Below, piece after piece: positions 30,698 through 64,000 of a stretch of 64,000 nucleotides of DNA. Made by a program: the position numbers and the translations under genes. The notes beneath the pieces are model-generated. The model searched no databases, was not told the DNA's origin, and was given only the letters and a program-made list of their open reading frames with translations. Numbering within the stretch: the stretch's first letter is position 1; the number at the start of each line of letters is the position of its first letter. Source of the DNA: a virus (Duplodnaviria > Caudoviricetes); the IMG/VR virus record IMGVR_UViG_2840842423_000001, positions 64,001 through 128,000 of that record. One strand, written 5' to 3'.

Positions 30698-30771
30698 GTA
30701 CCCTTAGCTTAGTTGGTCAGAGCCATCGGCTCATAACCGATAGGTCGTAGGTTCGAATCCTACAGGGTACA
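30698..30771 (+). tRNA. tRNA with CAT anticodon, most likely tRNA-Ile2(CAU, lysidine); CCA not encoded
   Basis: Acceptor stem GTACCCT/AGGGTAC, D-arm, anticodon stem ATCGG/CCGAT with loop CTCATAA, T-arm GTAGG-TTCGAAT-CCTAC; closely resembles Bacillus tRNA-Ile2. Confidence 0.9.
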
Positions 30772-30823
30772 CTTTAAATTTTTTACAATGGGTAAATAGT
30801 GCTATACTATATAATAAGGAGAT

Positions 30824-58695: not shown

Positions 58696-60243
58696 ATGGC
58701 GATTCAAGAGAAGAGCAGCACGATTCAGGTACTTGGGAGCTTAATAAAACAACCTGATTTATTATCGGAAACGAATGAATATAAGATTGAAGTAAACGAT
58801 TTTCCAGAGAAGTTTCATAGAATAATATTTGCAGCAATACATAATTTATACAACTCAGGAGATGTAGAGGTAATTGACTCAGTGGTGATTGATGGGTTCT
58901 TGAGTCAATATGATGTTCAGTATGAGATATTTAATCAGAATAAAGGATTGGAATACTTAGAAACAATACAGGAAATGGCTGAAGTTGAAAATTTTGATTA
59001 TTATTATGGTAGATTGAAAAAATTTTCACTTATTCGAGAGATGGATGGATTAGGGTTTGACATTAGCGAAGTCTATGATGAAACAATAATGAATCCTAGA
59101 GAAGCTGAAGAATTACAGAAGAAATTTGATAAGATGAGTATTGAGGATATTCTTGGAATATATGAAAATAAAATGGTTGAGATTAAGGACAAGTTTGAAA
59201 GTGATTCTGAGGCTCGTGGAATACAGGCAGGTGACGGTGTAGATGAATTACTTGATAGATTAAAAGGTTCTCCCAACGTTGGTTTGCCGCTGAACAGCCC
59301 AATGCTTACAGCAGCGGCATCTGGTGCAAGATTAAAAAAATTCTATATTAGGAGTGCTCCGACTGGTCATGGAAAGAGTCGTAATTTAATCGGAGATGCT
59401 TGCAAAATGTCAGCCAAAGGTTGGTATGATTCCAAGTTAGGTGAATGGGTGCAAAATCAATTTGATGTAAACAGTGTTGTTATTTCTACTGAAATGTTGT
59501 TTGAAGAACTACAAACTCCTGCTATTGCTTACATTGCAGATGTAGAAGAAGATAAAATATTACTAGATACAATGACCGAAGAAGAAGAAGAAAGAGTAAG
59601 ATATGCAGCTAATATTCTTAAATCATCAAATATTTTCTTTGAATTTTTACCAAACTTTGATGTTACAGATATTGAAAGAACCGTAGAGAAAAATATAATC
59701 AAAAATGGCGTGGAATATGTATTTTTCGACTATATTCACTCCAGCATTTCTATACTTTCGAGCTTTGCCAAGGATAGTGGAATTAATTTAAGAGAAGACC
59801 AAATATTGCTTCTTATGGCAGATAAATTGAAGCAAATCTGCAACAAATATTCAATTTTCCTAATGAGTGCTACACAATTGAATGGTGAGTGGAAAGAGGC
59901 TTGGCGAAAAGGGCAAGAGATTGACCAATCTTTCATCAGATCAAGTAAGGGTTTGATCGACAAAGTTGATCTCGCTGCAATAATGTTACCTTTGAGCAAT
60001 AAGGAAGAAAAAGAAATCGAAGAAATACTTTCACAAGGCTTTTATAAGAAAAAACCAAACTTTGTCACTCACATATTTAAGAATCGTGGAAACAAACATA
60101 CAAAATTAAAGATATTTTCATACATAAATATGGGCACGATGAGAATTGTGGATTTGTTTGCTTGCGATATAGAGAACACATTAATTCCTATGGACTTGCT
60201 AGAGATTAAAAATAAAGAAGTACAAGAAGTTGATACAGAATGA
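58696..60243 (+). CDS. yorI: Replicative DnaB-family helicase, SPbeta YorI-like
   Basis: DF....HRIIF.AI..L N-domain; SAPTGHGKS, ISTEM, FFDYIH, ATQLN, KNR. Confidence 0.88.
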   Translation: MAIQEKSSTIQVLGSLIKQPDLLSETNEYKIEVNDFPEKFHRIIFAAIHNLYNSGDVEVIDSVVIDGFLSQYDVQYEIFNQNKGLEYLETIQEMAEVENFDYYYGRLKKFSLIREMDGLGFDISEVYDETIMNPREAEELQKKFDKMSIEDILGIYENKMVEIKDKFESDSEARGIQAGDGVDELLDRLKGSPNVGLPLNSPMLTAAASGARLKKFYIRSAPTGHGKSRNLIGDACKMSAKGWYDSKLGEWVQNQFDVNSVVISTEMLFEELQTPAIAYIADVEEDKILLDTMTEEEEERVRYAANILKSSNIFFEFLPNFDVTDIERTVEKNIIKNGVEYVFFDYIHSSISILSSFAKDSGINLREDQILLLMADKLKQICNKYSIFLMSATQLNGEWKEAWRKGQEIDQSFIRSSKGLIDKVDLAAIMLPLSNKEEKEIEEILSQGFYKKKPNFVTHIFKNRGNKHTKLKIFSYINMGTMRIVDLFACDIENTLIPMDLLEIKNKEVQEVDTE

Positions 60244-61487
60244 CGCATGACAGACATGCAGTTTTAAGATTATCTTTTGAAGTGATAGAAGGATACTTTT
60301 CTGTGCTAGGGTTGACAATAGTTGACGATTTAAATAATTATAAAAATACTAAAACCAAATTTACTGCAATTGATAAAGATGGTTACAAAGTTTTCATGAC
60401 AGTGAATTCAGCAAAAAATTCAAAAGGTTATCGCAAATTTGATAAAAGCAATCCATATACTATAGACAATATTAAGCTTTGGTTGATACTAAATGATCCA
60501 GATTATGAGTTACTCTCTACAGAATATTGTGGAACTGATGAAAAATATACTTGGAGGATGATATCGAGACCTGATCTAGAACCATTTCGAACGACTTGGA
60601 CTGATTTTAAATCTGACGGGAATAGACATCCAGATTTGGGGCGGCAAAGGTCGGCAGACGGAAAAAGAAGAAAACCTGATCAGGTTAAAAGAGACATAGA
60701 CAAAAGGCTTGAAGAATCGTATCCCGATTGGCTTCTAGATGAAGGCGAGGAGTTTAAATATCGTACAGCCAAGAGCCCATATTTAAATTTTACACATAAG
60801 TTGGGATATAAGTCACAAACAACATATGCTCAAGTACACTCAGAAGTCCTAAGAACGTTAGTTTTATTTCATCCAAGCTACCCGGAGACTTCAATACATA
60901 ATATGGAGCTATGGACACACCTAAACTCTAAGTACGAAATGGTTAAGGGGCAAGAATATACAGAGTACAGAGGAAAATACAAGTTTATCTGTGACATTCA
61001 CAATGAGTTCACCAACAACTTTAGCACAGTGTATTCATATAACACGGGTTGTCAAGACTGTATCTCTGAAGCTCATTATGGGGAAGGTAACCCAAATTGG
61101 AAGCCATTTATCACGGACGAAGAAAGAGAGAATAGACACACTAGAGAAATGTATGTTGATGGATATGCAAGATGGCGAACAGACTCTTTGAAGCGAGATG
61201 CTTACTCTTGTCAAATTTGTGGGCACACAGAAGAACTAGTTGTACATCACAAAGATGGTTTTCATTGGAACGTAGATCGAAGAGCAGACCTATCCAATTC
61301 AGTGACCTTATGTTCTACTTGTCATGATGATTTTCACACCCAATACGGTTATTTTTATAATACAGAGGAACAGTTCAACGAATATTTTACCGACATGCAA
61401 AAGATAATCGAAGACGTTATAAAAGATGCAAAAGAGTATCACCAAAGAAAAGATAATAAATACCATACAGAATTACATAAAGAATAG
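60240..61487 (+). CDS. HNH homing endonuclease between helicase and primase
   Basis: Repeated Y.....K..F modules, C..H...GC..C, GEGNPNWK, C-terminal CQICG..VHH...NSVTLC..CH..FH. Confidence 0.85.
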   Translation: MTHDRHAVLRLSFEVIEGYFSVLGLTIVDDLNNYKNTKTKFTAIDKDGYKVFMTVNSAKNSKGYRKFDKSNPYTIDNIKLWLILNDPDYELLSTEYCGTDEKYTWRMISRPDLEPFRTTWTDFKSDGNRHPDLGRQRSADGKRRKPDQVKRDIDKRLEESYPDWLLDEGEEFKYRTAKSPYLNFTHKLGYKSQTTYAQVHSEVLRTLVLFHPSYPETSIHNMELWTHLNSKYEMVKGQEYTEYRGKYKFICDIHNEFTNNFSTVYSYNTGCQDCISEAHYGEGNPNWKPFITDEERENRHTREMYVDGYARWRTDSLKRDAYSCQICGHTEELVVHHKDGFHWNVDRRADLSNSVTLCSTCHDDFHTQYGYFYNTEEQFNEYFTDMQKIIEDVIKDAKEYHQRKDNKYHTELHKE

Positions 61488-61503: not shown

Positions 61504-62637
61504 ATGAGTAGACTAGACAAAGACAAAATAAAAGAATCGCTCACATTATCCGACATAAACTTAATCCTATCTGACTTAGGTTCTTCTTCTCCTAGACAAG
61601 ATAGCCAAGGCAATCCAATATACAGTACGGTGTGTCATCATGGAAATAGCAGTGATCATAAACATAAATTATATTATTATCCTTCTTCGTATAATTTTCA
61701 TTGCTATTCCAATTGTGCAAGCATGGACATATATGAGGTAATTATTCAAGCTAAAGAACAACAAGGATACACCTTTAGCTTCTACGAGTCTATCAAATAC
61801 GTAACAGAATTAACTCATAAAAGTTTTACAATGAACGATAGCAGTAAAGGCAAACAATCAGATAAAATTTCAGACTGGAATTGGCTTAATCGCTTCAAAC
61901 CTAAGAAAAAAATGACAACTCAACTACCATCATTCAACGAGAATGTACTGGATGTATTCTTACCTTATCTCAACAATTGGATCGGCGAAGGAATTACACC
62001 GAAAACTGCAAATCTATTCAATGTGCGCTACTACTTCAAGGAAGAACAAATAATTCTTCCACACTATGATATCAATAGTAGATTAATCGGCATTCGTTCC
62101 AGAAATACAGATGAACGTGCAGATTCAGGAGCAAAATATATTCCTACGATTGTGGAGAATACTCAATATAATCATGTATTATCTCATTCGCTTTATGGAA
62201 TTCATCTTACACAAGAAGCCGTAAAATCTAGTCGTAAATGTATGTTGGTGGAAGGCGAGAAAAGTGTATTAAAAGGAACAGAATTCTATGGAGAAGATAA
62301 TTTCACAGTTGCAGTATGTGGCAGCAACATAAGCACAGTTCAACGAGATTTAGTACTTTCTTTAAATGTTGAAGAAGTATTTATAGCATTTGACAAGTTT
62401 AGAGGGCAGAAAGATATGGAATCGGATGAAAAGTATGAAAAAGCATTGCTAGAGTATCAGAAGAAATTGGTGAGGTTAGCGCATATGTTTACTGCATTCG
62501 TGAGAGTGTACATTTTATATGATGATTATGGGGTGCTCAATCCCAAGGATTCACCACTGGATCAGTCAAAAGGCGCACTAGAACTTCTTATGATGAATAA
62601 AAATGAAATTACTACTAAGGAAGGAATGGTAACTTGA
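61504..62637 (+). CDS. yorJ: DNA primase (CHC2-like zinc finger + TOPRIM), SPbeta YorJ-like
   Basis: TVCHH..KLYYY..FHCYSNC; IILPH..GIRSR; LVEGEKS; IAFDK. Confidence 0.85.
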   Translation: MSRLDKDKIKESLTLSDINLILSDLGSSSPRQDSQGNPIYSTVCHHGNSSDHKHKLYYYPSSYNFHCYSNCASMDIYEVIIQAKEQQGYTFSFYESIKYVTELTHKSFTMNDSSKGKQSDKISDWNWLNRFKPKKKMTTQLPSFNENVLDVFLPYLNNWIGEGITPKTANLFNVRYYFKEEQIILPHYDINSRLIGIRSRNTDERADSGAKYIPTIVENTQYNHVLSHSLYGIHLTQEAVKSSRKCMLVEGEKSVLKGTEFYGEDNFTVAVCGSNISTVQRDLVLSLNVEEVFIAFDKFRGQKDMESDEKYEKALLEYQKKLVRLAHMFTAFVRVYILYDDYGVLNPKDSPLDQSKGALELLMMNKNEITTKEGMVT

Positions 62638-64000
62638 AGTATAATTTAAAAGGAAATAATAACATATTGTCTCCTTTAGAACAAATATTACATAATCGAG
62701 GAGTCACAGATGTAGATGGATTCCTGAAAGCAGGAAGTGACCATAGCGTAACAAATCATTATTCTAAATTGGATAACATTGATAAAGCAGTAGATTGTCT
62801 ACTAAAGCATATTGGAGGTGATAACAACATCTGGGTGCAAGTAGACCCGGATGTTTAGTTGACGGATATACATCTTCCGCAATGTTAATTAATTACTTAC
62901 ATAAAATCAAACCAAGCATCAACATACAATATAGACAACAAGACGGAAAGGAACATGGTATTAATGCTAATCATGTTCCTTCTGGTGTAGATTTAGTGTT
63001 GCTTCCTGACTCTGGGAGTGCAGATTTTGCAGAACACAAGAAACTACGCGAACGTGGCATTGATATCATTGTACTTGATCACCATGAAGTAGAAAACAAT
63101 CAAGAATCGAAACATGCAATTGTAGTAAACAATCAATTGTCACCTAAATTTGATAATAATAGCTTCAGTGGTGCAGGTGTCACATTCAAGTTTCTGGAAG
63201 CATTAGATGACAGGTTAGAAGTAGACTATGCCAATACATATTTAGATTTATTAGCTTTAGGAATAATTGGCGACAGTATGCTAGTTTCAGAAAAAGAAAA
63301 TAGATACTACATTACAAAAGGATTAAAAAGAATAAAAAACCCTTTAGTAAAAGAGATATTAAAATCGCAAGAATATTCAACTGGTGGAGTGGTAGATATA
63401 ACCAGCATCTCATTTTTTATTAACCCACTGTTTAACGCAGTTGTCAGATCAGGAAGCAAAGAGGAAAAGAATCAGGTATTTGAAGCATTGCTAGGAGATG
63501 GTACTGAGGAAGTATACTATGAACGCGGGAAGAAATATGAACCTTTAACAACAAATACAGTGCGTATGATGAAGCGTGTACGTGTAAGACAAAACAAACT
63601 AAGAGACAAAGGTGTAGAAGCAATCGAAGAGAAAATTGCAGAAAAGAATCTGTTGAACAATAAAATATTGACTGTAGAGGTTACAAATGTTTTAGATCCC
63701 AATTTAAGTGGGTTGGTAGCCAATAGGCTTGCGCAGAGTTATAAGCGTCCAACATTGCTTGTTAGGTGGGATGATGACAATGCAACATTAAGTGGCAGCG
63801 CAAGAGGATATGAGAATGGTTATATTAAAGACCTTAAAGGATATTTAGATTCTATGAATCAGTTTATTTATCTTCGTGGACATCCTAATGCGCATGGCGT
63901 AAAAATCATTCCAAACAATCTCATAGAAGTAAACAATATGATAAACAAAGATTTGAAAAATATCGAGTTAGATACAGGCTCATACGATGTTGATTTTGAG
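62634..64000 (+). CDS. recJ: RecJ-like DHH ssDNA exonuclease (SPbeta YorK-like), interrupted by 5 extra nt at 62856-62860; runs off the window end
   Basis: Frame 1 ends VDPDV-TAG; second frame from 62861 reads DGYTSSAML..KEHG..LPDSG..VLDHHE..SGAGVT..GDS..SGSARG..GHPNAHG with no stop seen to 64000. Confidence 0.88.

Follow-up and report, generated by a model that had tools for sequence, protein, structure and literature searches.

A stop-containing five-nucleotide insertion in motif I of an SPbeta-type RecJ-like exonuclease gene: a candidate stop-hop with recurrent counterparts in related phages

The stretch of phage DNA analyzed here (positions 64,001 to 128,000 of the IMG/VR virus record IMGVR_UViG_2840842423_000001), referred to at its full length of 64,000 nucleotides (nt) as the window, ends within a homolog of yorK, which is predicted from its sequence to be the replication-module RecJ-like single-stranded DNA exonuclease of an SPbeta-like prophage. 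The gene is divided into a 5' and a 3' piece inside motif I of the DHH domain (D-x-D-x-D-G), where the region ~62840-62890 contains GTA GAC CCG GAT GTT TAG TTG ACG GAT ATA. Exactly 5 extra nt, TAGTT, lie between codons 4 (GTT) and 5 (GAC) of the motif, their position being ambiguous by at most 3 nt because of the GTT repeat. In an alignment with YorK of SPbeta, gp97 of Geobacillus virus E3 and YorK of Goe12, in which the motif reads VDSDVDGYTSS, VDPDVDGYTSA and VDSDCDGYLSS, respectively, no residue is lost or duplicated, and the two pieces of the window gene abut, D-P-D-V being followed by D-G-Y-T-S-S. The original prediction that recJ is split in its catalytic motif by GTT-TAG-TT, and that a skip of 5 nt restores D-P-D-V-D-G, is upheld by this alignment, while the matched GTT codons and the stop right after the first of them can be read directly in the sequence. 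The junction combines two codons for the same tRNA, a landing codon directly 5' of the codon at which decoding would resume, a stop in the A site, and exact restoration of the protein, as a stop-hop calls for.

Both halves are otherwise intact, in agreement with the earlier description of over 370 open codons downstream. The 3' frame, which is open from 62825 and has its called start at ATG 62882, contains 380 stop-free codons from GAC 62861 within the window, and in a longer copy of the locus (L004) it reaches a stop 369 nt past the window end, giving 502 codons. Identity to the YorK proteins of SPbeta, E3 and Goe12 is 46-53%, with the LDHHE (DHH) and GH.NA.G motifs conserved. The called protein (P0003) carries PF01368 and PF17768 among its precomputed domains, and the gene thus has the DHH N-terminal and DHHA1-type domains of the DHH/RecJ-like proteins of the SPbeta YorK type, with an interrupted motif I. 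Within the GenBank phage collection, the 3' piece is most similar to YorK proteins from SPbeta-like phages (46-47% identity); no near-identical DNA was found there, and the closest phages listed, 47% identical at the protein level, are all uninterrupted. The 5 extra nt are known from assembled sequence, and identical DNA is present in a SPAdes contig with a stated coverage of ~113x.

The frequency and placement of such breaks was surveyed at the DNA level by three viral-contig homology scans and one metagenome-contig scan, yielding 320 loci that represent 225 distinct genes, with breaks detected by whole-gene comparison with 237 full-length proteins. Intact genes account for 217 of the 225, and the remaining eight comprise five with micro-insertions (1, 2 or 5 nt long), each of them inside motif I, and three with long inserts, of which two (L193, 1229 nt; L218, about 280 nt) also lie in motif I and one (L233) at residue 210/211. 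No frame break was found elsewhere in these ~570-codon genes across the 225, indicating that the gene is under strong purifying selection. A fourth viral scan provided 80 further loci, some on contigs already counted, all intact at motif I, the only part checked in these. The outcome named in advance as fatal to the prediction, that all relatives would be uninterrupted, did not occur. The accompanying expectation about relatives is borne out in its details, with a stop after the last old-frame codon, co-varying codon pairs and gaps of 1, 2 and 5 nt (and of 11 nt as deduced from protein); the interruption itself is not conserved.

Similar breaks are suggested by proteins, with about 40 cases known at this level alone. 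Among the best 120 matches in a search with the 3' piece, most of them 557-586 amino acids (aa) long, 14, including the window's called protein, start a few residues before or after the D-G of motif I. Out-of-frame leaders such as M-P-I-P-D-G and T-A-I-P-D-G correspond to D-[SA]-D-P codons read one base late, which implies, at the protein level, that 1 nt was inserted behind a CCC codon for proline, and the start of P0113 similarly implies an 11-nt gap. The motif D-x-D-x-D-G is present in 101 of 101 full-length proteins, none of which has an in-frame insertion or deletion in it; if selection were absent, one would expect to see deletions and in-frame changes too. Other searches added little: viral-contig scans with the single proteins P0001 and P0022 gave no matches, and a search of 50% representatives gave nothing new beyond ambiguous N-truncated forms. 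As a separate observation, the homolog on a short metagenome contig (L212:130-300) has in-frame TAG codons in its N-terminal region and soon after motif I, which suggests that this phage reads TAG as a sense codon.

The DNA-level insertions share a common design. L011 has a 5-nt insertion, GAT ACG [TGACT] GAT GGT, with the codon pair ACG/ACT, and L006 a 2-nt insertion, GAC CTT [TA] GAT GGC, in which the pair CTT/TTA overlaps by one base. L223 and L280 both have the 1-nt insertion GAT CCC [T] GAC GGC, with the pair CCC/CCT overlapping by two bases, and L018 has GAT CCC [T] GAC ACT GAT GGA, in which the same pair and a 1-nt insertion occur after D-P, two codons before the other breaks. In all six DNA cases, the window included, a stop directly follows the final old-frame codon (TAG in the window and L006; TGA in L011, L018, L223 and L280), and the triplet directly ahead of the resumed GAY specifies the same amino acid as that final codon (GTT/GTT in the window). 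For a random 5-mer of this gene's base composition, the probability of a stop in the first three bases together with a Val codon in the last three is 0.0058; the corresponding chances of a stop and a matching codon are 0.0086 for L011 and 0.104 for L006, calculated with the same base composition. L011 and L006 are independent tests of a prediction drawn from the window alone, and their joint chance is ~9e-4.

The 1-nt cases read CCC_TGA_C in three of three. Proline codons preceding Asp or Glu were counted in 214 intact genes, giving 588 outside motif I (CCT 189, CCC 86) and 29 inside it (CCT 8, CCC 2 and CCA, the commonest, 19), so that in-frame CCT-GAN or CCC-GAN sites number 275 outside versus 10 inside, a ~27-fold difference. 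The presumed precursor CCT-GAC occurs at only 1 of the 29 motif I proline sites. Because insertion of a C into CCA-GAY gives no stop, and CCT-GAC is rare, CCC_TGA_C is unlikely to have arisen as a mutational by-product, and by these codon counts the stop and its poor-termination context look selected.

Stand-alone N-terminal fragments, collected by a profile search (55 proteins including the window's own piece), point to the same positions. Twenty-one of them end exactly after codon 4 (Pro 5, Val 5, Thr 11) and six after codon 2 (Pro), while three end after D1 and one after D3, the positions of the long inserts, and one after D-G; the remainder pass through an intact motif and end further on, mostly on contigs of ~2 kb or less. 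Where the break falls at a proline codon of the motif, the stop is immediate in 11 of 12 fragments, the exception being P0276. The largest interrupted group, known from protein alone, consists of 11 fragment clusters ending F-D-T-D-T, which may hold micro-insertions or introns; a tblastn search for this group among GenBank phages had Geobacillus virus E3 as its sole match.

Additional recoding signals around the break were evaluated. The stem TTGaCGGA/TCCGCAA put forward in the original prediction is indeed part of the minimum-energy fold; this fold scores no better than those of shuffles (z -0.83, with 42 of 200 shuffles folding equally well), and the stem is not shared by the other interrupted loci. 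The internal Shine-Dalgarno (SD)-like string GGAGGTGA is likewise present, but it is 31 nt away and simply encodes I-G-G-D, and G-rich strings occur near its position in several relatives, interrupted and intact alike. As for the proposal of a programmed +5 stop-hop as a whole, the design recurs with a stop and matched codons, but it is sporadic, with no old conserved signal and no supported stimulatory structure.

Table 1. Features at and upstream of the interrupted exonuclease gene (window coordinates).
Feature	Position	Strand	Description
Helicase homolog	58696-60243		Upstream of the break
Free-standing HNH endonuclease-like open reading frame (ORF)	60240..61487	+	415 aa; PF01844, E 1.1e-4; between the helicase and primase-like genes
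yorJ homolog (primase-like)	61504-62637		Directly before the exonuclease gene
5' piece of the yorK/RecJ-like gene	62634..62858	+	TTG start; 74 aa, ending V-Q-V-D-P-D-V, then TAG; aligns with YorK residues 1-74
SD-like string GGAGGTGA	62814-62821	+	31 nt before the proposed take-off codon; encodes I-G-G-D
Proposed take-off codon GTT (Val)	62853..62855	+	Motif I codon 4; final old-frame codon
Extra TAGTT	62856..62860	+	In-frame stop TAG at 62856-62858; relatives have nothing between codon 4 and GAY GGN
Proposed landing codon, second GTT	62858..62860	+	Directly 5' of GAC GGA
Predicted hairpin TTGaCGGA...TCCGCAA	62859..62885	+	Minimum-energy fold
3' piece, from D-G-Y-T-S-S	62861..64000	+	DHH domain (PF01368, E 2.9e-14); runs past the window end

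The order of helicase, primase-like gene and exonuclease matches that of SPbeta, E3 and Goe12, in keeping with placement in a replication module. The HNH endonuclease-like ORF, whose ATG overlaps the helicase stop (ATGA), lies 1.4 kb upstream of the break; SPbeta has no gene at this position, which in Geobacillus virus E3 is occupied by an HNH endonuclease gene. The ORF of the window is regarded as context only, and no tie between it and the break was seen. Past the window end, an RNA-ligase-like gene (PF09414 with an OB fold) and an RlaP-like nucleotidyltransferase gene (L004:4511-6691) occupy the position that in SPbeta belongs to the DNA polymerase downstream of yorK, and a split polymerase, considered at first for this region of L004, was rejected on this account. 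The only tRNA gene of the window is a tRNA-Met (CAT) at 30698-30772; a suppressor tRNA was therefore rejected as an explanation of the break, all the more because read-through of TAG would leave the frame unrestored. Comparison of the window by tblastn with the record carrying L011 (G001) and with two SPbeta stretches (L254, record 50001-100000; L001), with which it has few genes in common, detected no other frame break, and a crude junction scan of the window gave no further candidate junction.

The favored reading of the break in the window, for which the prospects are judged to be about even, is a tolerated insertion rescued by a +5 stop-hop, in parallel to shifty-stop +1 frameshifting in the relatives. 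Most ribosomes would stop at TAG and release the 74-aa N-terminal fragment. In a minority, while the slow stop fills the A site, the peptidyl-tRNA(Val) would leave GTT and re-pair with the GTT 5 nt downstream, and decoding would resume at GAC GGA to give a small yield of protein with a normal D-P-D-V-D-G motif. In the 1-nt relatives, tRNA(Pro) would slip by +1 on CCC_TGA_C, and in the 2-nt relative the tRNA would move from CTT to TTA. A -1 or +2 shift in the window was rejected as a route to the normal enzyme, as it adds one or two residues inside D-x-D-x-D-G. A selection filter acting at the level of translation would account for the stop and re-pairing codon in nearly all inserts, and for the fact that no codon is removed or added. 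The occurrence of hopping, the sufficiency of the enzyme yield and the reason for the choice of site are inferred.

A low enzyme yield may be tolerated, or may be useful in itself. As the favored explanation for the choice of site, the DNA of motif I might be the target of a homing endonuclease or its intron, in which case a tiny insertion would block cleavage and recoding would keep the protein; immunity of this kind is a conjecture by analogy with the T4 gene 60 insert. A broader proposal, considered rather unlikely, is that motif I is the seat of a recurrent conflict with intron-borne or free-standing homing endonucleases, in which ‘recoding patches’ of 1-11 nt, each holding a stop and a re-pairing codon and skipped by +1, +2 or +5/+11, destroy the DNA target and keep the motif. 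If true, the patches would be a natural counterpart of the T4 gene 60 insert, poor in signals and evolved many times over, and short stop-hops would have their first natural family.

Several observations weigh against rescue by stop-hopping. Comparable Pro-Asp/Glu sites are ~27 times more numerous outside the motif, so that generic rescue leaves the restriction to motif I unexplained and a site-specific cause is needed in addition; nor does a hop account for the source of a 5-nt insert holding both a stop and a landing codon. P0276 has nine out-of-frame residues after the break, implying a 2-nt insert without an immediate stop, and in L011 a GTG start overlaps the TGA, allowing a restart there. 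Stop-hops in E. coli constructs are about 1% efficient, and no significant or common stimulatory RNA structure was found in the folds of five interrupted and three intact loci. Unstimulated CCC_UGA shifts are likewise generally no more than 2% efficient, according to PMC3082878. In a FastTree phylogeny of the 3' parts of 115 proteins, from which six rows (fragments or duplicate calls) were left out, 13 changes are required to account for the 14 split forms, and at least 11 independent breaks follow from the branches with good support. Each split form has close relatives that are intact; the alleles are thus young or transient, just as null mutations would be.

Several split forms sit on the tree beside closely related intact ones (P0022 beside P0015 and P0018; P0113 beside P0122; P0086 beside P0076; P0080 beside P0064), and from these sequences the breaks are recurrent and mostly young rather than an old conserved feature. 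Closest to the window is P0004 (60% identity), whose own break falls at this junction too, but consists of 1 nt and follows a different codon. The N-terminal pieces P0284 and P0285, which also end in D-P-D-V-stop, are 69-70% identical to that of the window, and the intact P0005 and P0047 are 70% and 73% identical to it; no intact relative was found closer than ~73% nucleotide identity to any interrupted locus. Across the family as a whole the recoding site is not conserved, although a common break is found within each of several small sets: five N-piece clusters, the four P0278 variants and the 11 F-D-T-D-T clusters. The five N-piece clusters, 73-77% identical overall, share a +1 break after D-P, and their final 31 residues are almost identical. 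These pieces (P0277, P0279, P0280, P0282 and L018:4784-4993) have a mosaic appearance, the first ~40 residues being ~60% identical and the last 31 nearly identical, as would be expected of a co-conversion tract around the break or of strong constraint just upstream of the shift site.

Some breaks have nonetheless persisted or spread. P0278 is represented by four variants, 95-99% identical, all four with the D-S-D-P end; the P0004 allele is present on 4 contigs, together with a variant having 6 changes in 511 residues, 5 of them to BLASTP-similar residues; and P0300 is present on 12 contigs. The interrupted L011 sits in a 118-kb viral record, G001, which has direct terminal repeats and is rated 100% complete. 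Decay was assessed over 88 columns conserved in at least 95% of 101 intact proteins, at which the 3' piece of the window deviates in 2; intact proteins deviate in 1.29 on average and in 11 at most. The split C-terminal pieces as a group do not deviate significantly more than intact proteins (one-sided Mann-Whitney p 0.075), and the trend is driven by one clade, in which two split forms show 10 and 11 deviations and intact members 9 and 11. No decay downstream of the break was thus found in the window gene over its 502 open codons and these 88 columns; a very young null allele would likewise lack decay.

Such a null allele is the main competing explanation, and is entertained as a tentative possibility: the 5 nt would be a scar at a damage hot spot in motif I, and no full-length enzyme would be made. 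The scar might result from homing-endonuclease cleavage followed by imprecise repair, or from imprecise loss of an intron that starts with a stop codon, and the allele might persist for a while through the dispensability of the gene in a prophage or through protection by the scar from re-cleavage. An excision footprint may also be the origin of the 5-nt insertion. The long inserts of L193 and L218, which interrupt the same motif and both begin with TAA after GAT, are consistent with a scar, as is the fact that every micro-insertion starts with T and a purine, like the 5' end of such an intron; the connection with introns is nevertheless one of anatomy, without an Rfam match, and the SPbeta-like loci read show no intron-bearing allele. 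The sporadic and recent placement of the breaks on the tree, the lack of a stimulatory signal and the low frequency (5 of 225 genes) are also in keeping with null mutations. On the other hand, imprecise repair would be expected to leave deletions, in-frame changes and also inserts lacking a stop or a match, none of which was seen save the stop-less P0276, and the absence of other frame breaks in 225 genes indicates a gene under strong purifying selection. In addition, the ACG/ACT pair of L011 is synonymous without being a duplication, and the copies of interrupted alleles found on several contigs differ only by conservative changes. Even if the break is null, its extreme site specificity would still point to an unrecognized site-specific lesion process in catalytic-motif sequence.

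Two further explanations receive much less weight. In a split enzyme, thought very improbable, the 74-aa N-terminal piece would cooperate with a separately initiated C-terminal piece, or the latter would act alone. This finds some encouragement in relatives, since the new-frame GTG of L011 overlaps the TGA (GTGA), a common stop-restart arrangement, and some +1 relatives have a new-frame ATG a few codons upstream, with called proteins that begin M-P-I-P-D-G. The start codons nevertheless vary among interrupted relatives, and the new frame of the window has no ATG, GTG or TTG between the stop at 62822 and ATG 62882, which has no SD-like string before it; a product from 62882 would miss the D-G and the first two Asp of motif I. 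No DHH enzyme is known to have its metal-binding motif divided between two chains. An assembly or sequencing artefact, with the 5 nt absent from the real genome, is the most improbable of all, given the SPAdes assembly at ~113x, the atypical nature of a 5-nt non-homopolymer insertion as a short-read error, and the occurrence of analogous insertions in independent assemblies from several sources, with the same alleles on several contigs.

Long intervening sequences also occur in this gene family. The inserts of L193 (1269-2497, after D3) and L218 (2225-2506, after D1), from two distant gut-metagenome relatives, are homologous to each other and share a common core including AAATTGCGGGAAGTTCCTTA; in both, exon 1 ends in T, the insert starts with TAA right after GAT, and it ends in G. 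The L193 insert contains a 252-aa ORF with LAGLIDADG-like motifs (1744-2502). By their anatomy the two inserts look like group I introns; an Rfam search gave 0 matches for either at E values up to 0.01. No intron-bearing allele was found among the SPbeta-like-clade loci read, and in the window the break holds only 5 nt, in place of a group I intron or homing-endonuclease insertion. A second intervening-sequence site in the family lies in L233 (497-1573), where ~1.08 kb separates exonuclease residues 210 and 211, the flanks being in the same frame. Endonuclease genes do not accompany the interrupted genes consistently: the window has the HNH ORF on the upstream side, L011 has a GIY-YIG ORF on the downstream side, and L006 has no such gene nearby. 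The region after the exonuclease in G001 (L011:6696-11122) contains an opposite-strand DUF1643 gene, the small GIY-YIG ORF, a PHP-domain polymerase piece and a TnpB/IS605 OrfB-like gene, and these mobile-type genes beside the polymerase piece suggest that the polymerase region is riddled with mobile elements. In L006 (6523-10809), a PolIII-alpha-like polymerase is spread over three ORFs; ~470 nt separate the first from the second, and the second overlaps the third, which may reflect introns or frameshifts.

If the insertions are indeed skipped, they would provide a natural set of minimal bypass and shifty-stop sites, with varied codon pairs and gap lengths in a single protein context, suited to dissecting what ribosome hopping needs. 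Annotation pipelines would then be discarding working genes as pseudogenes or split ORFs, and the long-standing idea that recoding allows conflicts with mobile elements to be fought inside unchangeable codons would become testable in Bacillus-type phages. Literature searches on yorK with SPbeta, and on RecJ with bacteriophage ribosomal frameshifting, found no report on this gene in the material covered, which excluded supplementary files.

Very few systems of utilized translational bypassing are known, namely T4 gene 60 and its homologs, the yeast mitochondrial ‘byps’, and a Streptomyces-phage candidate. Hops of +5/+6 and stop-hops with matched codons were described in synthetic E. coli reporters (Weiss, Dunn, Atkins & Gesteland 1987, cited in PMC5009743); PMC5009743 presents short stop-hops as known only from such engineered reporters and in-frame stop-hopping as having no known natural occurrences. 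The break in the window resembles these reporters in its matched codons flanking a stop, the proposed re-pairing of the peptidyl-tRNA slightly downstream, its 5-nt gap and its lack of elaborate signals. It differs from them in being natural, in lying within a catalytic motif, in involving a change of frame, and in its recurrence among relatives that have different codon pairs. The shifty stop CCC_UGA is described as especially prone to +1 shifts, being used in a tail gene of the Listeria phages PSA, A118 and A500 and in E. coli pheL, while SPP1 uses CCC_UAA (PMC3082878 and PMC5009743). The CCC_TGA_C of L018, L223 and L280, and about a dozen protein-level cases that imply the same, conform to this type and likewise occur in phages of Firmicutes, in which CCC is rare. 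Unlike the known phage shifty stops, which are conserved and give a second product with a C-terminal extension, those seen here are sporadic and would make the sole functional product. The GTT_TAG of the window lacks an overlapping Val codon and would need a hop in place of a +1 slip.

Retention of a frameshifting indel has a precedent in the ‘saviour’ indels of PMC5009743, exemplified by low-level compensatory frameshifting at a G-run in herpes simplex thymidine kinase. The proposed situation is similar in that a frameshifting indel would be kept since low-level frameshifting yields enough product and the indel itself is advantageous; it differs in that no homopolymer or drug selection is involved here, and that the advantage, either endonuclease immunity or dosage, is conjectured. 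A candidate bypass triggered by the codon UUA, with blocks of 7-10 nt in 3 of 100 relatives, is reported in PMC10732093 for terminase genes of Streptomyces phages (phiHau3). There too, short non-coding blocks occur at a conserved junction in a minority of relatives, and ordinary frameshifting would add residues at that junction, whereas the slow codon is a rare sense codon with a proposed role in host-life-cycle regulation; in the exonuclease genes a stop takes that part, in another gene, at another site and in phages of another host phylum.

A further comparison is with the T4 gene 60 insert, which, according to a preprint (bioRxiv 10.1101/2022.08.31.505936), shields the gene from the MobA endonuclease in a region too conserved for change at the protein level. 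On that account, both systems have a non-coding insert within a strongly conserved segment of a phage gene for DNA metabolism, as well as matched codons, a stop at the start of the gap, and repeated independent insertion at one location. Peculiar to T4 gene 60, as described there, are a 50-nt gap, a nascent-peptide signal, stem-loops, an SD sequence, high efficiency, and an HNH endonuclease gene that travels with the insert. The exonuclease genes, by contrast, have gaps of 1-11 nt, their predicted folds are neither significant nor common, and no MobA-like gene adjoins the breaks of the window, L006 or L011.

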